Shown: positions 7,170-14,391, counted from the stretch's first letter. The stretch is 14,391 nt of DNA from a virus (IMGVR_UViG_3300033994_001334:64001-78391); one strand, 5' to 3'. Notes: generated from the letters alone by a model not told the origin. Numbers and translations are program-made.

Positions 7170-7574
7170 TTATATTCCATACCACTCCAAGATTTCTTCA
7201 CCCGATTTAATATCCCGAAGTGTTTTACCAAAACCATCCACGTTTTGATTTTCTTTATATGGATATGAGGAGTTACAAAAGGATGATGAATGAACAAGAT
7301 AATTTAACCCATTAAAGAGTCTTATTATTTTATAATCGGGGTCATCGTCAATGAAATTCATATTAATCATTTTCAATACCGGTGCGGGAAGTTCATTTAA
7401 TCTATTTTTCGGTATTCTATAAATTCCAGTACCATTTGACCATTTTGTGAATATGTAAGTATTTTTGGGAATATCAACAATTGCAAATACACCAATACCA
7501 TGAACCTCTGATAAACGAAGTTCGGTTAGGATATTATGTTTTAAATGGTAAATTACCTCATCCGTTATATCCAT
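7170..7574 (-). CDS. SET-domain protein (putative protein lysine methyltransferase)
   Basis: SEVHGIGVFA (motif I), YLVHSS..CN (variant of the NHS motif), RDIKSGEEILEWY (terminal GEE..Y motif). Confidence 0.8.
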   Translation of the reverse strand: MDITDEVIYHLKHNILTELRLSEVHGIGVFAIVDIPKNTYIFTKWSNGTGIYRIPKNRLNELPAPVLKMINMNFIDDDPDYKIIRLFNGLNYLVHSSSFCNSSYPYKENQNVDGFGKTLRDIKSGEEILEWYGI

Positions 7575-7768: not shown

Positions 7769-8302
7769 CTACAAATTCTTAAATTGTTTAAATCTGTAGT
7801 TGAGGACAGCATTAAACCCGAATCCAGGATTAATTGCATAATTGTAGTTTGTTGTAAGCCTAAATTGGAGATTATTACTTTGGGATAATTTTATTCCCTT
7901 ATAATAAAAAGATAATGACATTTGTGGAACAAAATCGGTTTTTGGATAATAACCCATTAAACCAATAGGAGATATTACCACATCAAATTTTTCAAATCTA
8001 CGACCGAAATCAAGTTGGGTTGTTAATATTGAATTTGGAATTTGTCTTTCTTGCATTTGACCTTGTCGTGACATAACCAAACAATAAGAACCATTAAAGT
8101 GAATTATTAATGGGTATTTATTATCGGTGATTTCTATTTCACCCGTCATCCCTATAATGGGACTACGTAAGAAACTGTTTACTCCACCCATACTTGATAA
8201 CCATACCTTTCTGTACGTTGTGTCTAAAGGGGTCGGTTGACCACTTATTGGTGATACACCAATAATAAGGAATGTGATAAGTAAAAGAACTGAAAGTTTC
8301 AT
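7769..8302 (-). CDS. Secreted protein, candidate small outer-membrane beta-barrel
   Basis: Signal peptide MKLSVLLLITFLIIGVSPISG followed by Q; alternating hydrophobic strands; terminal GFGFNAVLNYRF. Start may be 8308. Confidence 0.6.
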   Translation of the reverse strand: MKLSVLLLITFLIIGVSPISGQPTPLDTTYRKVWLSSMGGVNSFLRSPIIGMTGEIEITDNKYPLIIHFNGSYCLVMSRQGQMQERQIPNSILTTQLDFGRRFEKFDVVISPIGLMGYYPKTDFVPQMSLSFYYKGIKLSQSNNLQFRLTTNYNYAINPGFGFNAVLNYRFKQFKNL

Positions 8303-8463: not shown

Positions 8464-8512
8464 GGAAAAATTTCAGTTACGGCATTGTCCCCCCTATACA
8501 GACATCGAAATA

Positions 8513-8570
8513 GGGGGTATATAAGGGGGGATACGGGAGGGGGGGTATCATAGGGGGGTGGTGTAGGGGG
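8513..8570 (+). other. G-tract run fitting the G-quadruplex pattern
   Basis: G5-N7-G6-N4-G3-N1-G7-N7-G6-N7-G5. Confidence 0.75.
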
Positions 8571-8574
8571 TAGG

Positions 8575-8594
8575 TTGCCCCTCTATAAGTTTTT
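8575..8594 (+). repeat. Intergenic module A, right arm
   Basis: TTGCCCCTCTATAAGTTTTT; a degenerate left arm may lie at about 8466-8484 (AAAAATTTCAGTTACGGCA). Confidence 0.65.
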
Positions 8595-8636
8595 CACCCG
8601 TCAGGTTCATCAGGGTTTCCCGTTGTGTTGGTATAG

Positions 8637-8702
8637 TGTGGATAACTTTATAGAAGAAATATAAAATAGTTCTTGTTATATTCAAAACTAATCTTATCTT
8701 TG
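8637..8702 (+). promoter_or_regulatory. DnaA box plus Bacteroidota-type sigma70 promoter (cassette 1)
   Basis: TGTGGATAA 8637-8645; TTG 8673-8675; TATCTTTG 8695-8702. Confidence 0.8.
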
Positions 8703-8737
8703 TACCCGTTGTAACAAACCAAACAACATTAAATAAA

Positions 8738-9307
8738 ATGACTACAATAGTAAAACAACAAGTAGAAGTAACACCAACTGAAATGGTGGAAATCCTTAAA
8801 GGAGTAGAGGGTAACCCTAATGTACCTTTCGTAAATTGTAAAATGAAAACATTATATAGTGATGTTTTAAAAACTTGTAAAAGTGACGGAACAATTAACC
8901 CATACTTTAAACAAATTTACAAAGTGAGTAGTAAGAATTACAAGTTAGTTACCAACTACGAACAAAGGGTAAAAAACAATTTAATTAAAGAGGGTAAAGA
9001 CCCCAATAGTTTTGTTGTCGAAAGTCCGAAAGGAAAAAAACATATTTCAAAATCGTGTTTAACCGATAAGGAAACCGAAACAAAACTATATGTTATGTTG
9101 GAGTGGTTTCCCGAAATTAAAGGAACAACTGAATACGAATTTGAGGGTAATAGTATTGACAAACAAATTTTTGAAAAGTGGATTTCAACAAGTGAGAGTT
9201 CAAATAAAAAACAAGGTTTGGATAGAGAGATACACCCAATAACCCCACTAATCTCAAATATAATATCAATTTCAGTTAATGGAATGGTTTATATCATTAA
9301 GGAATAA
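8738..9307 (+). CDS. Phage hypothetical protein (cassette 1)
   Basis: 189-aa ORF between a promoter and a terminator; no Ala. Confidence 0.9.
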   Translation: MTTIVKQQVEVTPTEMVEILKGVEGNPNVPFVNCKMKTLYSDVLKTCKSDGTINPYFKQIYKVSSKNYKLVTNYEQRVKNNLIKEGKDPNSFVVESPKGKKHISKSCLTDKETETKLYVMLEWFPEIKGTTEYEFEGNSIDKQIFEKWISTSESSNKKQGLDREIHPITPLISNIISISVNGMVYIIKE

Positions 9308-9326
9308 AAACCCCTTAAAACTAATT

Positions 9327-9360
9327 AAAACACTATCCGAAAGGGTGGTGTTTTTTTTTT
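9327..9360 (+). terminator. Intrinsic terminator, cassette 1
   Basis: AACACTATCC-GAAA-GGGTGGTGTT plus T-run. Confidence 0.85.
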
Positions 9361-9411
9361 GTCCAAAAATTTGTGGATTGAATTTTTTTGGTGGGACCAT
9401 GTTCCATCCGT

Positions 9412-9473
9412 AAAATAGAGGGGCAATTTTGTTTTTGGTGGGTTCTATTTGGGTTTGCCCCTTTAAAAGTTTT
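9412..9473. repeat. Intergenic module B, inverted arms
   Basis: AAAATAGAGGGGCAA (9412-9426), 28-nt spacer, TTGCCCCTTTAAAAGTTTT (9455-9473). Confidence 0.8.
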
Positions 9474-9516
9474 CATGGTCCCTGAGTTTCCGACTCAAGT
9501 CCTTCAGTTCACATTG

Positions 9517-9563
9517 TGTGGAAAACTTTATCTTGTTTTATAATAGTATCCATGTTATATTTG
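9517..9563 (+). promoter_or_regulatory. DnaA box plus promoter (cassette 2)
   Basis: TGTGGAAAA 9517-9525 (fits TTWTNCACA); TTG 9533-9535; TATATTTG 9556-9563. Confidence 0.8.
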
Positions 9564-9586
9564 TATTCAGTTAAACCAAACATATT

Positions 9587-9880
9587 ATGTATACTAAAGA
9601 AGAAATTCAACACAACCTCTCCACTAATCCTAAATGGATTGAAAGAAGTCTTATCGTATTGTACCAAAGACAAACCCAAGATGAACAACAAGTCGGTGGT
9701 ACTTTTGTTCAAAACAATGTAGGTTTTAATAGTTCCGATAGTCGTTACCTCTCTTATTGTAGTAGGTGGTTACTACAAGGTAAACACCTTGACAATGGAC
9801 ACCTTGAAAAGTGTGGTGGGAAATTAAAGAAGTATTGGAAACAGATTGAAAGTATAATCAAGGAAAAGGGGAACAATTAG
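9587..9880 (+). CDS. Phage hypothetical protein with RQTxDE and NNVGFN motifs (cassette 2)
   Basis: 97 aa between promoter and terminator. Motif pattern recalled from widespread phage hypotheticals; function unknown. Confidence 0.88.
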   Translation: MYTKEEIQHNLSTNPKWIERSLIVLYQRQTQDEQQVGGTFVQNNVGFNSSDSRYLSYCSRWLLQGKHLDNGHLEKCGGKLKKYWKQIESIIKEKGNN

Positions 9881-9895
9881 TTCTCCTTTTTTTTT
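9864..9895 (+). terminator. Intrinsic terminator, cassette 2
   Basis: AAAAGGGGAAC-AATTA-GTTCTCCTTTT plus T-run; overlaps the stop codon. Confidence 0.8.
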
Positions 9896-9933
9896 GACCA
9901 CAGATTTTAGAATACCACCCGGTCTTCCATCCG

Positions 9934-9998
9934 GAAAATAATGGGGCAATCGGTATGACAAATGTTGGTATCGGTATGACATTTGCCGACATAAATCC
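9934..9998. repeat. Intergenic module C, inverted arms
   Basis: GAAAATAATGGGGCAA (9934-9949), 33-nt spacer holding two TCGGTATGACA, TTGCCGACATAAATCC (9983-9998). Confidence 0.8.
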
Positions 9999-10019
9999 AA
10001 ACCGTGACGACAGGTGAAG

Positions 10020-10086
10020 GTAACATTACTAAATAAAAAAAAATAAAAAGAAATTCTTGTTTTATTCAGAAATTATATTACCTTTG
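10020..10086 (+). promoter_or_regulatory. A-tract class promoter (cassette 3)
   Basis: GTAACATTAC 10020-10029; A-tract; TTG 10057-10059; TACCTTTG 10079-10086. Confidence 0.8.
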
Positions 10087-10120
10087 TGTCGTTGTAATAA
10101 ACCAAACAACATTTAAAAAA

Positions 10121-10324
10121 ATGAAAAATCTATTTATCTACTTAACATTTATTGTTATTACTTTCTTTTCGGTGTATGGTGCATTTACTATGGACATACC
10201 AACCGACAACCAAATTGGGATGTTATTTTTTGGTTCATTGTCTTTTAGTGTTTTGTTAATGGTAACCTTTTATGATATTCGTATGTTTATCAAAAATAGA
10301 AAACCAAGACCTCAAACTTTCTAA
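10121..10324 (+). CDS. Small two-TM membrane protein (cassette 3)
   Basis: 67 aa, two hydrophobic stretches, basic C-terminal tail. Confidence 0.8.
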   Translation: MKNLFIYLTFIVITFFSVYGAFTMDIPTDNQIGMLFFGSLSFSVLLMVTFYDIRMFIKNRKPRPQTF

Positions 10325-10343
10325 TCTTTCATTTTGTATCTTA

Positions 10344-10374
10344 AAGACCTCATCAGAAATGGTGGGGTTTTTTT
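10344..10374 (+). terminator. Intrinsic terminator, cassette 3
   Basis: ACCTCATCA-GAAA-TGGTGGGGT plus T-run. Confidence 0.8.
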
Positions 10375-10416
10375 GTGTCTGAAGTTTTTAGAATACCACC
10401 CGTGTCCTTCCATCCG

Positions 10417-10596
10417 GAAATTAAATCGGCAAAATCCATATCTGAAGATTTAGTAACATTACTTTCTGTGTCCATGAAAAAGATTTATCGGGGCAACGAC
10501 ACCAAATTATGTGGGGGTTTAATGTGAAATTGCCCCATTAAAAGTTTTCCTCTCAGGGTTCACGGTCAGGACGAATTGTGGTGGATTCGTATGACA
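10417..10596. repeat. Intergenic module D
   Basis: Left arms 10417-10432 and 10481-10496, right arm 10530-10548, CGTATGACA 10588-10596. Confidence 0.8.
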
Positions 10597-10602
10597 AAAA
10601 AA

Positions 10603-10648
10603 TGTGGATAACTTTTTCTTGTTTGTAAAAGTATTTGTATTATATTTG
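10603..10648 (+). promoter_or_regulatory. DnaA box plus promoter (cassette 4)
   Basis: TGTGGATAA 10603-10611; TTG 10619-10621; TATATTTG 10641-10648. Confidence 0.8.
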
Positions 10649-10670
10649 TACTCGTTAAACCAAACATAAA

Positions 10671-10853
10671 ATGAAAGATTTATTAATTACAAAAGTCGTA
10701 ATACTCATAGTAGTATTATTATTAATCACCCTCACAAGTTGTGGGACTTATCAAGTCGTGGGAAGTACAACCTATAACAAAGAGTATAGGACTGATTCAA
10801 CAATCACAAGAGTTTATTATGATTCAACAACAATTAGAATGAGTAAAAATTAA
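10671..10853 (+). CDS. Small putative lipoprotein (cassette 4)
   Basis: Hydrophobic VVILIVVLLLITL followed by lipobox LTSC(24)GTY. Confidence 0.75.
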   Translation: MKDLLITKVVILIVVLLLITLTSCGTYQVVGSTTYNKEYRTDSTITRVYYDSTTIRMSKN

Positions 10854-10857
10854 AATT

Positions 10858-11043
10858 ATGAAAACAATATTTGTATTATTCGTGGATAATAAACCAAAAG
10901 GTATCCTATCTGAAATTCAGTTGGAAAATTATAGTGGTCGTAGTTGGTGGACGACATTTAAAAAAATGTTAGTTCCAACCGAAAAAATAGATGACCTAAA
11001 CATTGGTAACGTAGAAAAATACCTTACCTTATACGGAATTTAA
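10858..11043 (+). CDS. Small hypothetical protein (cassette 4, second gene)
   Basis: 61 aa, starts 4 nt after the previous stop, followed by a terminator. Confidence 0.75.
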   Translation: MKTIFVLFVDNKPKGILSEIQLENYSGRSWWTTFKKMLVPTEKIDDLNIGNVEKYLTLYGI

Positions 11044-11063
11044 TTGAAGTTGGTTTGTGAATT

Positions 11064-11094
11064 AAGGGGTAGAGAAATCTACTCCTTTTTTTTT
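11064..11094 (+). terminator. Intrinsic terminator, cassette 4
   Basis: AAGGGGTAGA-GAAA-TCTACTCCTT plus T-run. Confidence 0.85.
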
Positions 11095-11154
11095 GTTTAA
11101 AAAATTTGGGTTCGGAAGAAAAGTTCGGATGTTTGTGGGGACAGGTCCGTCGGG

Positions 11155-11258
11155 GAAATTAACTCGGCAAACCAGGTAAATACGTTGGGTACGTATGACA
11201 CTTGCCCCATTAAAATTTTTCGTCCGAAGGTTCTGAGATGGTCGGGATTCGTATGACA
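11155..11258. repeat. Intergenic module E
   Basis: Left arm 11155-11170, CGTATGACA 11192-11200, right arm 11202-11220, CGTATGACA 11250-11258. Confidence 0.8.
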
Positions 11259-11262
11259 AGAA

Positions 11263-11308
11263 TGTGGATAACTTTATTTGTTTTATATTCTAAACTAACC
11301 TACATTTG
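11263..11308 (+). promoter_or_regulatory. DnaA box plus promoter (cassette 5)
   Basis: TGTGGATAA 11263-11271; TTTG 11277-11280; TACATTTG 11301-11308. Confidence 0.82.
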
Positions 11309-11333
11309 TATCGTTAAACTAAAAAAATATAAA

Positions 11334-12122
11334 ATGAAAATTAAAGAAGAGTCGTTACTTACCATTGTAAATGAAAAAAACTACATTAGTCATCACGTTG
11401 GTCATATAATGAAATCAATGACCATAGACAAAGTGAATGAAAATGTCTACGTTAGTAAAATGAAATTATTTGAAACTAATGTAAATTGGAGGAGGTTAGT
11501 ATTTTCTGAAAAATCAAAGAAAAATTTAGAAAATTACACAATACCAAAAGATATTCGTGTTGAGGTGTTGAGGTCGTTACCTAATAGAAACGACATCATT
11601 TTAATTGATGAATATAATTGTATAAAATATATAAAAACCGATAATGAATTAATAGTATCATTTCATTATACAAATAAAACACATTTAAATGATTATGGTG
11701 CACCCGTACTTTATATGTTTTATTTTCAAGTTAATTTGATAACCGGTAAAATTTCATCCGACCAAATGGATTTTGAAAGTAATAAAATGGTGGATTATGA
11801 AATGTTAATCGAAAAGTTTTATAGTCGTTTTTTGGTGGTGATTACATATTTGGAATTGACCGAAGTAACATTAAATGTAATTGAAGGTGGTAAATCGTTT
11901 GGTACTTGGAATAGTGGTAAGATTAAAAACAAAACAAAAAATAGAATTATAATGGTTAATACAAATTGGAATGTAGAAACCATTAGTCTAAATAGTTTTT
12001 CAGTTCGTGGACATTGGAGATTACAACCTTGTGGTGTTGGTAGAAGTCAGTTTAAATATGTTTACATTAAACCATATGAAAAAGGTTTGATTAGAAGATT
12101 ACCACAAAAAGAATTGGTTTAA
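11334..12122 (+). CDS. Phage protein with C-terminal VRGHWR motif, 262 aa (cassette 5)
   Basis: Start moved from 11238 to 11334 because the track extension runs through the promoter. C-terminal SVRGHWRLQPCG...YIKPYEKG. Confidence 0.88.
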   Translation: MKIKEESLLTIVNEKNYISHHVGHIMKSMTIDKVNENVYVSKMKLFETNVNWRRLVFSEKSKKNLENYTIPKDIRVEVLRSLPNRNDIILIDEYNCIKYIKTDNELIVSFHYTNKTHLNDYGAPVLYMFYFQVNLITGKISSDQMDFESNKMVDYEMLIEKFYSRFLVVITYLELTEVTLNVIEGGKSFGTWNSGKIKNKTKNRIIMVNTNWNVETISLNSFSVRGHWRLQPCGVGRSQFKYVYIKPYEKGLIRRLPQKELV

Positions 12123-12127
12123 CAACG

Positions 12128-12161
12128 AAAATTTCCTCAACGAAAGTTGGGGATTTTTTTT
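12128..12161 (+). terminator. Intrinsic terminator, cassette 5
   Basis: TCCTCAAC-GAAA-GTTGGGGA plus T-run. Confidence 0.85.
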
Positions 12162-12205
12162 GCGCTAACGCTGCTCTGGTTTGCGCAACAGCTGCTGGTT
12201 CAGGT

Positions 12206-12289
12206 GGAATTAGTTCGGCAACGTATGACACTTGCCCCATTAAAATTTTTCCTCTCAGGGTTCGGGAATCAGGGTGGACTCGTATGACA
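12206..12289. repeat. Intergenic module F
   Basis: Left arm 12206-12221, CGTATGACA 12222-12230, right arm 12232-12250, CGTATGACA 12281-12289. Confidence 0.8.
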
Positions 12290-12293
12290 ATAA

Positions 12294-12339
12294 TGTGGAT
12301 AACTTTATTTTTTTTATAATGGTATATGTGGTATATTTG
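12294..12339 (+). promoter_or_regulatory. DnaA box plus promoter (cassette 6)
   Basis: TGTGGATAA 12294-12302; -33 element degenerate; TATATTTG 12332-12339. Confidence 0.75.
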
Positions 12340-12367
12340 TATCTCAAACCAAAAATAAATAAATCAA

Positions 12368-12583
12368 ATGAAAGTAGTATCATCTCGTATCACCGACCAA
12401 CCAAAAAGTTTCTTTGACCCAATCCCACAAGTGTTCGTAACTTTAGAAAATGGGGAAGAACAATTCTTATTCGATTACTATCCCGATGAAATCAGTTTCA
12501 CACCTAATGAGTTCGTGGGTTTGACACTTGATGAGTGTAGACACTTGAAGTTTGTAAAAGATAAAAGATACCTAACAAGTTGA
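12368..12583 (+). CDS. Small phage hypothetical protein with YPDEISF motif (cassette 6)
   Basis: 71 aa directly behind a promoter. Confidence 0.85.
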   Translation: MKVVSSRITDQPKSFFDPIPQVFVTLENGEEQFLFDYYPDEISFTPNEFVGLTLDECRHLKFVKDKRYLTS

Positions 12584-12614
12584 TGTCATGGAAAAACTAT
12601 CGTGTAAAGAAAGA

Positions 12615-12695
12615 ATGAAAGAGTTATTGGGAATACTAATTGTTTTACCGATACTAATTTATTACGGAATCCGATTTTTAATAAGGGGTAGATAA
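12615..12695 (+). CDS. Possible 26-aa single-TM peptide (35 aa if started at 12588)
   Basis: Manual translation MKELLGILIVLPILIYYGIRFLIRGR; fills the space up to the terminator. Confidence 0.45.
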   Translation: MKELLGILIVLPILIYYGIRFLIRGR

Positions 12696-12713
12696 TTCTA
12701 CTCCTTTTTTTTT
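12683..12713 (+). terminator. Intrinsic terminator, cassette 6
   Basis: AAGGGGTAGA-TAAT-TCTACTCCTT plus T-run; same stem as cassette 4. Confidence 0.85.
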
Positions 12714-12763
12714 GTCCAAAAATTTGTGGTTTGAAAAAAATCGAGGAGATGTTGGGTGAATCC

Positions 12764-12865
12764 GAATTTAACTCGGCAATCGTATAACACCTTATACTCG
12801 TATGACGATTGCCCCATTAAAAATTTTCGGGGACGAGCTCTGAGATGGTCTGAATTCGTATGACA
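12764..12865. repeat. Intergenic module G
   Basis: Left arm 12764-12779, CGTATAACA 12781-12789, CGTATGACG 12799-12807, right arm 12809-12827, CGTATGACA 12857-12865. Confidence 0.8.
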
Positions 12866-12869
12866 AGAA

Positions 12870-12915
12870 TGTGGATAACTTTATTTGTTTTATATTCCAA
12901 ACTAAACTACATTTG
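12870..12915 (+). promoter_or_regulatory. DnaA box plus promoter (cassette 7)
   Basis: TGTGGATAA 12870-12878; TTTG 12884-12887; TACATTTG 12908-12915. Confidence 0.82.
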
Positions 12916-12948
12916 TATCGTTGTAATAAACCAAACAACACCAATTAT

Positions 12949-13395
12949 ATGAAATTCAATACAAAATCATTAGACCACAAATTCTATGGTAAGACCATTA
13001 GAACATTTACTGAATTAGAAAGTAAATTATTTGAACTTGACCTATTAATGTCAATGACCTTTATGGTTAGTAAAATGGGTGAAGAAACCAAAGAATTAAA
13101 AGAAACCTTAAACGATATGGGTAAGGTTCGTTTTGTTATTTCTTGTGAACTTTTGGGTTACTCTGAAACTCACATTTCAATCATTCCATTTGAAACAATA
13201 ATGGAAAAAATTGAAGAGAGTGATTATGGGTTCACTAAATTTTTACAAGACCACCAAGAAAATTCTAAATTAATTCCAAAAGAAGATGTGGAGATGATTG
13301 AAAAGTTGTTAAGGAACGAACTTTCAAAGAAAGAAGATGTAGTCGGTCAGATGTCTGATAGTGTTAGACAACAACCGAGTTATATGTGGAACTAA
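12949..13395 (+). CDS. Helical hypothetical protein, 148 aa (cassette 7)
   Basis: Start moved from 12871 to 12949 because the track extension runs through the promoter. Confidence 0.85.
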   Translation: MKFNTKSLDHKFYGKTIRTFTELESKLFELDLLMSMTFMVSKMGEETKELKETLNDMGKVRFVISCELLGYSETHISIIPFETIMEKIEESDYGFTKFLQDHQENSKLIPKEDVEMIEKLLRNELSKKEDVVGQMSDSVRQQPSYMWN

Positions 13396-13423
13396 TTTTG
13401 TCTATCATAGTTGTTCTATGACT

Positions 13424-13453
13424 AACCCTCACCCGAAATGGTGGGGGTTTTTT
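13424..13453 (+). terminator. Intrinsic terminator, cassette 7
   Basis: AACCCTCACC-CGAAAT-GGTGGGGGTT plus T-run. Confidence 0.8.
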
Positions 13454-13492
13454 ATTTCCCGTATCTTGAGTCGGAGATGTTCGTCCCTTCCC

Positions 13493-13611
13493 AAAACTAA
13501 GTCGGCAACGTATGACACTTGAGTCGGGAATTCCGTCGTTACCGTCCGGGACAGATGAAATTAGGTTTGCAACGTATGACATTTGCCGAACTAATTTCCG
13601 GATTACGACGG
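13493..13611. repeat. Intergenic module H
   Basis: Left arms 13493-13508 and 13557-13572, CGTATGACA 13509-13517 and 13573-13581, right arm 13583-13598. Confidence 0.8.
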
Positions 13612-13623
13612 TTCTGAGAAAAA

Positions 13624-13685
13624 GTAACGTTACAAAAAAAAATAAAAAGAAATTCTTGTTTTATTCAGAAATTGTATTACCTTTG
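13624..13685 (+). promoter_or_regulatory. A-tract class promoter (cassette 8)
   Basis: GTAACGTTAC 13624-13633; A-tract; TTG 13656-13658; TACCTTTG 13678-13685. Confidence 0.8.
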
Positions 13686-13713
13686 TTCTTGTTAAACCAA
13701 TAGAAAAAATAAA

Positions 13714-14076
13714 ATGAAAAAAGGAATTTTAATCGATGTTCATAACAGAACAATCACAGAAGTAGAAGTAACCAAAGATGAAAATGGTTCTCAATTACAA
13801 TCAATGTACAATCACATTAAATGTGGAATTGTGGAGTGTGTTGGTTTTGATGAAAAAAATGATGTGTGGGTTGATGAAGAGGGGTTATTAACTTTAACAC
13901 CCGATTCGATGTTTTTTAAATTTGAGGGGTATCCCGATTTTTTATGTGGTAATGGTTTGGTTATGGGTTTTGATAATGAAACGGGAGAAAGTGTTGATAC
14001 GACCTTAACTATTGATGAAGTAAAATCAATGGTAGAATTTCGTACACTAAACGAAGTAAGAAGACAGTTAGTTTAA
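13714..14076 (+). CDS. DUF3846-like protein (cassette 8)
   Basis: L..MY.HI.C..VE.V.....D.WVDEEGL...LCGNGLV matches my recollection of the DUF3846 (N/D)EEG pattern. Confidence 0.65.
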   Translation: MKKGILIDVHNRTITEVEVTKDENGSQLQSMYNHIKCGIVECVGFDEKNDVWVDEEGLLTLTPDSMFFKFEGYPDFLCGNGLVMGFDNETGESVDTTLTIDEVKSMVEFRTLNEVRRQLV

Positions 14077-14095
14077 TGTAATGTTTGGTTCATGG

Positions 14096-14128
14096 AAATT
14101 TCCTCACCGAAAGGTGGGGATTTTTTTT
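14096..14128 (+). terminator. Intrinsic terminator, cassette 8
   Basis: TCCTCACC-GAAA-GGTGGGGA plus T-run; near twin of cassette 5. Confidence 0.85.
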
Positions 14129-14171
14129 GCGCTAAAATTACTGGTGTTTGCGCATGGTGACTAGTCAGAAT

Positions 14172-14250
14172 GGAATTAGTTCGGCAACATTTAAATATGG
14201 TGTTGTTGCCCTTTTAATTTTCCTGGAGGACCTGTCGACTTCGACTCAAG
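14172..14250. repeat. Intergenic module I
   Basis: Left arm 14172-14187 (identical to module F), right arm TTGCCCTTTTAATTTTC from 14206, CGACTCAAG 14242-14250. Confidence 0.78.
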
Positions 14251-14267
14251 ATTCTATGTAAATATAA

Positions 14268-14313
14268 TGTGGATAACTTTTATTTTTTTATACCGAAAAT
14301 TAAACTACATTTG
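14268..14313 (+). promoter_or_regulatory. DnaA box plus promoter (cassette 9)
   Basis: TGTGGATAA 14268-14276; -33 element degenerate; TACATTTG 14306-14313. Confidence 0.75.
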
Positions 14314-14347: not shown

Positions 14348-14391
14348 ATGAACATAATTAAAACATTAGAGTATTCAATGGACTACTCACA
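14348..14391 (+). CDS. 5' fragment of the cassette 9 gene
   Basis: ATG after the conserved leader; MNIIKTLEYSMDYS is open to the window end. Confidence 0.7.
   Translation, partial: MNIIKTLEYSMDYS

Follow-up and report, generated by a model that had tools for sequence, protein, structure and literature searches.

An array of self-contained gene cassettes from a freshwater Flavobacterium-type jumbo phage lies in a stretch of 14,391 nucleotides (IMGVR_UViG_3300033994_001334:64001-78391; hereafter the window), the final 14.4 kb of an IMG/VR virus contig of 78.4 kb. The window has 9 cassettes, and a near-identical strain at least 17. The intergenic modules of this array combine inverted repeats (a left and a right arm), short GTATGACA boxes, and a promoter preceded by a DnaA-type box or an A-tract. 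Spacing comparisons support a helical register of right arm, DnaA-type box and core promoter, in the box-bearing promoters only. We give an about even chance to the interpretation that these are phased upstream operator modules controlling host-polymerase promoters, on which cooperating proteins would occupy one face of the DNA. The arms would then be sites of a DNA-binding protein specific to each phage lineage, and another, more widely conserved factor would bind GTATGACA; right-arm protein, box protein and RNA polymerase would touch on one DNA face, and this contact would turn all the cassettes on or off jointly.

The register is seen in ten box-bearing modules, drawn from the window and from L278, a near-identical strain contig reached via an exactly matching 120-aa protein, which extends the array 10 kb beyond the window and raises the count to 17 right arms. 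Distances from right arm to box are 62, 62, 73, 61, 62, 61, 62, 62, 63 and 51 bp, and the original prediction's series (62, 62, 73, 61, 62, 61 and 62, from TTGCC on the plus strand to TGTGGA) was reproduced. From box to -7 motif the distances are 58, 39, 38, 38, 38, 38, 38, 58, 38 and 70 bp, and over the whole span from arm to -7 they come to 99, 99, 100, 100, 101, 101, 111, 120, 120 and 121 bp. The departures from the common spacing (+11, -11, +20, +20 and +32) all lie within 1 bp of whole helical turns; departures of 11, 11, 20 and 32 bp fall on average 0.6 bp from multiples of 10.5, a closeness matched in 0.27% of trials of a Monte Carlo null with random departures of 4-36 bp (p = 0.0027). 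In the module with 51 bp from arm to box, the box stands 70 bp from the -7 motif, each part and the total being shifted by whole turns, and the two +20 modules have unrelated sequences. Neighboring intervals in the same modules vary freely, by 13-40 bp: terminator to left arm spans 37-76 bp, -7 to ATG 30-43 bp, and the arm spacer 10-33 bp in the window. Because the departures are whole turns while the flanking intervals vary freely, right arm, box and core promoter appear to be held in register, as had been proposed. The accompanying claim that the sequence between arm and box varies is borne out as well, with gapless identity between linker classes of 0.21-0.44 against a shuffled mean of 0.25. 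In the window, at least three sequence classes of linker can be told apart, all of the same length to within 1 bp, and by eye three linkers of L278 are unlike any of these; those of the modules with right arms at 11202 and 12809 share an identity of 0.77 and are recent duplicates.

From 5' to 3', a module comprises a terminator, a left arm, zero to two GTATGACA boxes, a right arm, a GC-rich linker of ~45 nt, a DnaA-type box or A-tract, and the promoter; four modules have an extra GTATGACA between linker and DnaA-type box. The inverted arms described earlier are real, but their length of 16 bp was not upheld: both are inverted copies of one bipartite element of 19-23 nt, CCGGAAA..TTAAnnnGGCAA, read from the arm sequences. 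The right arm, which reads TTGCC..TAA..TTTCC, begins about 110 bp 5' of the likely transcription start, and each of the 9 window promoters has exactly one, 95-120 bp before its -7 motif; the operon-internal second genes (10858 and 12590) have neither promoter nor arms. The arm core TTGCCNNNNTAA occurs 30 times with at most one mismatch (14 expected) and SGTATRAC 13 times (1.4 expected), counts that none of 200 dinucleotide shuffles of the window reached. Exact TTGCCNNNNTAA matches number 12, all within 9455-14217, and the arm, GTATGACA and TGTGGATAAC motifs are confined to the last 6 kb of the 78-kb contig. Twelve (C/G)GTAT(G/A)AC boxes, all on the plus strand, were again found between 9952 and 13573. 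They abut the inner arm ends, with GGCAA running directly into CGTATGACA on one side and CGTATGACA-n-TTGCC on the other, while promoter-proximal copies lie 13-15 bp upstream of where the DnaA-type box starts.

All nine promoters have a -7 motif TAnnTTTG with TTTG or CTTG ~20 nt upstream, and an A-rich leader that lacks a Shine-Dalgarno sequence; they are predicted to be of the Bacteroidota host type (-33 TTTG, -7 TAnnTTTG) and to serve host RNA polymerase. The DnaA-type box, TGTGGA(T/A)AACTTT, lies directly 5' of the -33 element at about -50 to -38, and its start is 38-39 bp upstream of the -7 motif, or 58 bp in the case of module 1. Its coupling to the promoter, part of the original prediction, holds for seven promoters, an A-tract replacing the box in two of the nine (-7 motifs at 10079 and 13678). 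With at most one mismatch, TGTGGATAAC occurs 8 times against 1.4 expected, and no dinucleotide shuffle of the window reached 8. Of the DnaA box 9-mer TTATCCACA there are seven copies, six of them perfect and the seventh differing at one position; all read TGTGGATAA on the plus strand. We take TGTGGATAAC to be a DnaA-type site to which host DnaA may bind.

The A-tract form, when sequences are compared, matches the middle promoters of Cellulophaga phage phi14:2 (A-tract, CTTG and TAnnTTTG), which primer extension and in vitro transcription showed to be used by host-type RNA polymerase (bioRxiv 10.1101/2020.03.07.982082). These "tripartite" promoters were also considered as carriers of the DnaA-type box and rejected, since they have the A-tract instead and no box. 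In IMG/VR, the box followed by TAnnTTTG was found at more than 120 loci (L012-L131), the gap peaking at 25-26 nt in 60 of 130 matches. At this distance TGTGGATAACTTT precedes TAnnTTTG in at least 60 promoters of many unrelated phage contigs, often right after a terminator and without arms. It has the appearance of an upstream element shared generally by phages whose promoters are of the Bacteroidota type, and no published account of it was found. The corresponding scan of bacterial genomes for box plus promoter gave matches in all phyla and was uninformative.

Nine modules, all on the plus strand, carry these elements in the window. Module 1 (8575-8702), the array's first, has a right arm only (8575-8596) and no left arm, followed by the box TGTGGATAACTTT at 8637-8649 and the -7 motif TATCTTTG at 8695-8702; arm to box is 62 bp, box to -7 58 bp and arm to -7 120 bp. 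Module 2 (9408-9563) comprises a left arm at 9408-9426, a spacer of 28, a right arm at 9455-9476, the box TGTGGAAAACTTT at 9517-9529 and a -7 motif at 9556-9563, with 62 bp from arm to box and 101 bp from arm to -7. Module 4 (10414-10648) has two left arms (10414-10432 and 10479-10496), a spacer of 33 and a right arm at 10530-10551, then CGTATGACA at 10588-10596, the box at 10603-10615 and the -7 motif at 10641-10648; its arm-to-box distance of 73 bp (111 bp to -7) reflects, by comparison with module 6, two indels of +9 and +2. Module 5 (11153-11308) has its left arm at 11153-11170, a CGTATGACA at 11192-11200 abutting the right arm (11202-11223), a second CGTATGACA at 11250-11258, the box at 11263-11275 and the -7 motif at 11301-11308 (arm to box 61 bp, arm to -7 99 bp). 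In module 6 (12204-12339) the inter-arm spacer of 10 nt is one CGTATGACA box (12222-12230) between a left arm at 12204-12221 and a right arm at 12232-12253; CGTATGACA follows at 12281-12289, the box at 12294-12306 and the -7 motif at 12332-12339, with distances of 62 and 100 bp. Module 7 (12762-12915) places CGTATAACA (12781-12789) and CGTATGACG (12799-12807) between its left arm (12762-12779) and right arm (12809-12830), and continues with CGTATGACA at 12857-12865, the box at 12870-12882 and the -7 motif at 12908-12915 (61 and 99 bp). Module 9 (14170-14313) has a left arm at 14170-14187, a spacer of 18, a right arm at 14206-14225, the box at 14268-14280 and the -7 motif at 14306-14313 (62 and 100 bp).

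The two window modules of the A-tract type are modules 3 and 8. Module 3 (9931-10086), without a DnaA-type box, has a left arm at 9931-9949, two GGTATGACA boxes 21 bp apart (9952-9960 and 9973-9981), the right arm TTGCCGACATAAATCC at 9983-9999, an A-tract at about 10043-10057 and a -7 motif at 10079-10086, 96 bp from the arm. In module 8 (13491-13685) a left arm at 13491-13508 abuts CGTATGACA at 13509-13517; a second, degenerate left arm (13557-13572) is followed by CGTATGACA at 13573-13581, the right arm TTGCCGAACTAATTTCC at 13583-13601 and, 95 bp from that arm, the -7 motif at 13678-13685.

Related jumbo-phage contigs have the same layout with different arms, which are uniform within each phage: TTTTGGCAGTA and TACTGCCAAAA in relatives G001 and G002, TTTAGTCTGGAAT and ATTCCAGACTAAA in G003, TTTGTTTGGCTC and GAGCCAAACAAA in L258, TTTGGCG and CGCCAA in L257, and GAAATTAGTGGGGCAA and TTGCCCCACTAATTT in G005. 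In five phages a GTAT(G/T)ACA box adjoins the arms; the DnaA-type box is found in many. Such a pattern fits what a fast-evolving, phage-specific arm binder acting with conserved or host factors might produce; concerted evolution through recombination would also explain the uniformity of arms within phages. Arm and box are 51-53 or 62-64 bp apart in G001 and G003. The G005 array presents an inversion between arms: a 24-nt spacer, gtaccctatggaatggtgaggtcg, is reverse-complemented in one occurrence, between arms that are perfect and identical (L263, about 7976-8001, compared with L263 8473-8498 and L274 2884-2909).

Relative G001 also offers a lead to what the space between the arms can hold. There the inter-arm slot carries TGTTTCACGTGGAACA, which fits the chromosomal parS consensus, TGTTNCACGTGNAACA (PMC7022226). 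The sequence tGTTTCACGTGGAACA lies between the arms in five G001 modules, with three exact matches to TGTTNCACGTGNAACA (L259 2161, 3272 and 6676), and the parS palindromes stand upstream of five promoters carrying the DnaA-type box. This phage encodes a ParB-like protein of 259 aa (L276 1420-2199; ParB_N and HTH_ParB) that is related to Spo0J, KorB and Noc. Since G001 has both parS and its own ParB-like protein, the inter-arm slot can hold an operator for an array-encoded protein. No TGTTNCACGTGNAACA occurs in the window or its 78-kb contig; the ParB family PF02195 was not found in that contig, an estimated ~25% of the genome, and the precomputed Pfam matches of the L278 array include no ParB.

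Several observations weigh against phased operators. The modules are paralogues, so that the distance counts are not fully independent, and in G001 and G003 tandem DnaA-type boxes, spaced 10-11 bp, account for part of the 11-bp stepping. Clear phasing is absent from the A-tract promoters: across the seven A-tract modules of the window and L278 the arm-to-(-7) distance is 94-96 bp in five, 88 and 85 bp in the others (85-96 bp overall), with ranges of 69-99 bp in G005 and 97-145 bp in L258. Two box promoters in L278 do without a right arm, having a left arm or no arm directly before the box, and the right arm is thus not obligatory. The GTATGACA boxes, which the original prediction had placed in helical phase with the rest, are not all in phase with one another: arm-proximal and promoter-proximal copies within one module are 58-59 bp apart, or ~5.5 turns. 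As for a protein that would bind arm or box, no recognizable DNA-binding domain was found in the 78-kb contig or the 15.5-kb L278 array, and the enhanceosome or synaptic complex named in the original prediction serves as an analogy. Finally, the cassette genes are presumed to be early, and promoter use and timing are likewise read from the DNA.

The first rival holds that arms and boxes have no regulatory role and are parts of copied, homogenized terminator and promoter modules, in which the arm-to-promoter distance would be inherited and not selected. Contigs L279 and L282 have an extra 72-aa cassette flanked by two near-identical copies of a ~190-bp module running from left arm to leader, the module that appears as module 9 in the window. 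The window retains one of these copies and L278 the other, which implies that the crossovers occurred at different points of the repeat. In short contigs of all four lake runs, the leader and terminator modules seen here are joined to other contents, though joints in such contigs cannot tell excision or circles from paralogous copies. An apparent strain difference in a 60-aa gene proved to be a gene-calling difference only. Comparison of the strains thus shows recombination between ~190-bp modules, which adds, deletes and reshuffles cassettes.

Paralogue comparison within the window points the same way. From the terminator to the end of the left arm, modules 6 and 9 share about 85-100% identity; beyond it they are sharply divergent as far as the box. 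Because this break in homology falls between the arms, the left arm is inherited together with the terminator that precedes it, and the right arm together with the promoter that follows it. The arm spacers of 28, 33, 33, 31, 10, 29, 10 and 18 nt in the original prediction were recovered, the seventh by way of the degenerate inner left arm of module 8, and over the extended array of window and L278 the range widens to 5-74 bp. With such spacers, and with arms that belong to different recombining modules, the two arms do not form one fixed dimer site, as the prediction had argued. Uniform arms within genomes and different arms between them are also what concerted evolution would give. Purely passive copying nonetheless leaves unexplained why linkers at random identity keep their length within 1 bp or change it by whole turns when adjacent intervals take indels freely, and the conservation of GTATGACA and DnaA-type boxes despite differing arms suggests selection on the sites. 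We consider this explanation unlikely when taken alone. It and the regulatory one are not mutually exclusive, and the shuffling of cassettes is a demonstrated side effect.

A different regulatory proposal, which we regard as improbable, starts from the arms flanking each transcription unit in inverted orientation, right arm before the promoter and left arm after the terminator. One phage protein would bridge the two and loop each cassette into its own topological and regulatory domain, with host DnaA at the phase-locked box as a co-factor of early transcription; the short, variable spacers would in that case be the junctions between neighboring loops.

Somewhat less probable still, the modules could be decoys or docking sites for host DnaA (through TGTGGATAAC) and, in a relative, for ParB (through parS), acting by titration or recruitment or as origin-like elements rather than in transcriptional control. 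The ingredients of an origin do occur together: a DnaA box whose 9-mer is the perfect consensus, with 7 in 6 kb in one orientation, GTATGACA tandem repeats 20-21 bp apart that resemble iterons, inverted repeats and AT-rich DNA. Relatives have tandem or head-to-head boxes, and G001 has its consensus parS. Against this, the box of this phage stands a fixed 38 bp upstream of the -7 motif, barring the +20 and +32 cases, and the same spacing, a box-to-(-7) gap peaking at 25-26 nt, is found in more than 60 other phage contigs, a placement characteristic of promoter elements. An origin would not be expected in one copy per gene, and G001 has a ParB-like protein of its own, so its parS need not serve the host.

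The least probable account, that the arms extrude as a cruciform or hairpin displaying the spacer, either as an N4-like hairpin early promoter or as a sink for transcription supercoiling, draws on the perfect 13-19-bp arms of relatives, whose hairpins are far stabler than shuffles (z -5.7; L259 units), and on the G005 spacer found in both orientations between identical arms, as hairpin strand-switching would give, but the arms of this phage are not perfect repeats and share a conserved mismatch of 2-3 nt, the loops run from 5 to 74 nt, left and right arms assort independently, and the promoters are of ordinary host type. Cruciform extrusion, which the original prediction had entertained, is unlikely here because most folds are no better than shuffles: as single-stranded DNA, 6 of 8 arm pairs fold with z of +0.3 to -1.8, equaled by 9 to 126 of 200 shuffles, and only 12761-12830 (z -4.4) and 13556-13602 (z -2.2) beat them. 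Whole intergenic regions give z of +0.7 to -2.4.

Among known systems, the architecture comes closest to promoter early stem-loop (PeSL) cassettes with a phase-locked operator region added. As the cassettes of T4-type phages are described in two reports (Arbiol et al. 2010, PMC2839356; Comeau et al. 2014, PMC4122927), they pair a promoter with a stem-loop, and recombination between copies adds or removes cassettes. The present array shares with them, to the extent of that description, small repeated modules of terminator and host-type promoter flanking many small orphan genes (ORFans) in a hyperplastic region; each of the nine window modules is predicted to have a hairpin-plus-T-run terminator and then TTTG and TAnnTTTG, and the 72-aa cassette is an insertion or deletion between close strains at a duplicated module. 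It differs from the described cassettes in ~150 extra bases with arms, GTATGACA, a length-locked linker and a DnaA-type box, and in having a promoter of the Bacteroidota -33/-7 type.

KorB regulates many promoters of plasmid RK2 from upstream sites, in the system of KorB/OB-KorA long-range silencing (PMC11790492); the likeness is limited to G001, with parS upstream of cassette promoters and an array-encoded ParB/KorB-like protein, and KorB acts independently of distance by sliding, whereas spacing in the window is quantized. DnaA-regulated promoters of the dnaA and nrdAB type likewise have a perfect TTATCCACA 9-mer beside the promoter, but here the box has a fixed position just 5' of -33 and conserved flanks (C and TTT), occurs in many phage promoters, and is interchangeable with an A-tract UP-like element in other modules. 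The spacing also recalls CRP class I promoters, the Fis sites of rrnB P1 and phage phi29 p4, where upstream activators or repressors work from phase-dependent sites. As in those cases, the upstream site in the window apparently shifts only by whole turns (100, 111 and 120-121 bp); it differs in lying farther upstream (about -110), in having a second box between site and promoter, and in that its inverted partner arm belongs to the neighboring cassette. Features of N4 hairpin promoters are missing, given the imperfect arms, spacers of 5-74 nt, folds mostly not above shuffles and host-type promoters, and integron attC sites do not fit cassettes that carry their own promoters.

No tyrosine recombinase (PF00589) or Y1 transposase was present in four related contigs, all incomplete genomes. 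INPHARED phages gave no megablast or blastn match to the region, one promoter module yielding chance matches only, and an Rfam scan of the window at a permissive E-value gave two sub-threshold chance matches. The literature searched on the box sequence, on Bacteroidota phage promoters and on intergenic repeats of Flavobacterium phages contained no description of these modules, and no RNA datasets are listed among the sequencing runs that carry the stretch. Homologues of the 97-aa and 120-aa cassette genes are mostly in phages without these motifs. A sigma-54 promoter was rejected on GG/GC spacing, a Pho box on an overlap of only a 7-mer with the reverse of GTATGACA; ends of miniature inverted-repeat transposable elements or transposons and RNase III sites were considered and dropped.

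The stretch is present in lake-water metagenomes from 20 studies, and the window has a GC content of ~30%. Gene direction and GC skew both flip near 8,500, with small plus-strand genes to the right. Cassette genes occupy 8738-14076 on the plus strand, starting at 8738, 9587, 10121, 10671 (with 10858), 11334, 12368 (with 12590), 12949 and 13714; a last one, also on the plus strand, starts at 14348 and is cut by the window end. A hairpin-plus-T-run terminator closes each transcription unit. In the window and L278 the products are mostly ORFans, the families matched being DUF3846, DUF4314, DUF932, GP88 and a faint AcrVA2-like one. DUF3846 (13714-14076, plus strand), DUF4314, DUF932 and the faint AcrVA2-like match are found among array genes at L278 5203-9818 and at window positions 11334-12122 and 13714-14076.

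At the left edge of the array, a G-rich tract that includes tatataaggggggatacgggagggggg (8486-8574) marks the switch from leftward genes to the rightward array, directly 5' of the first, partner-less right arm. Counterparts are found in L259 (about 2085-2143) and on the reverse strand of L260 (about 8155-8237); the tract recurs near letter-for-letter in G003 and in similar form in G001, and could be a G-quadruplex-prone boundary, origin or terminus signal. Just left of the array, a 134-aa SET-domain protein (7170-7574, minus strand; Pfam E = 1e-6) is a possible lysine methyltransferase. The first cassette gene encodes a 189-aa protein (8738-9307, plus strand) without a Pfam or PHROG family, with homologues in all related arrays examined (L074, L274, L260, L259, L258 and L257) and in 43 database clusters. 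Its AlphaFold model has a pLDDT (predicted local distance difference test score) of 87, and a structure search returned only uncharacterized proteins, along with weak similarity to WYL/Sm-like barrels (Z about 5.6). No other protein is common to all arrays sharing the GTATGACA box, which makes the 189-aa protein, speculatively, a candidate binder of that box.

To our knowledge, almost nothing is known of how the first genes of Bacteroidota phages are controlled, in uncultured jumbo phages especially. The array is in this respect a compact natural experiment, offering the same promoter with and without each upstream part and with spacing changed by whole turns, and cooperation on one face of the helix can be tested directly with reporter constructs. 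The wide occurrence of the DnaA-type box, with the parS and ParB-like protein of G001, hints at promoters built around the sites of host chromosome-maintenance proteins. DUF3846, DUF4314, DUF932 and AcrVA2-like families are ones we take to be typical of the anti-defense "leading regions" of conjugative plasmids, and such membership would suit an early counter-defense role for the array. The modules show as well, between natural strains, repeated regulatory DNA driving the gain and loss of small genes.

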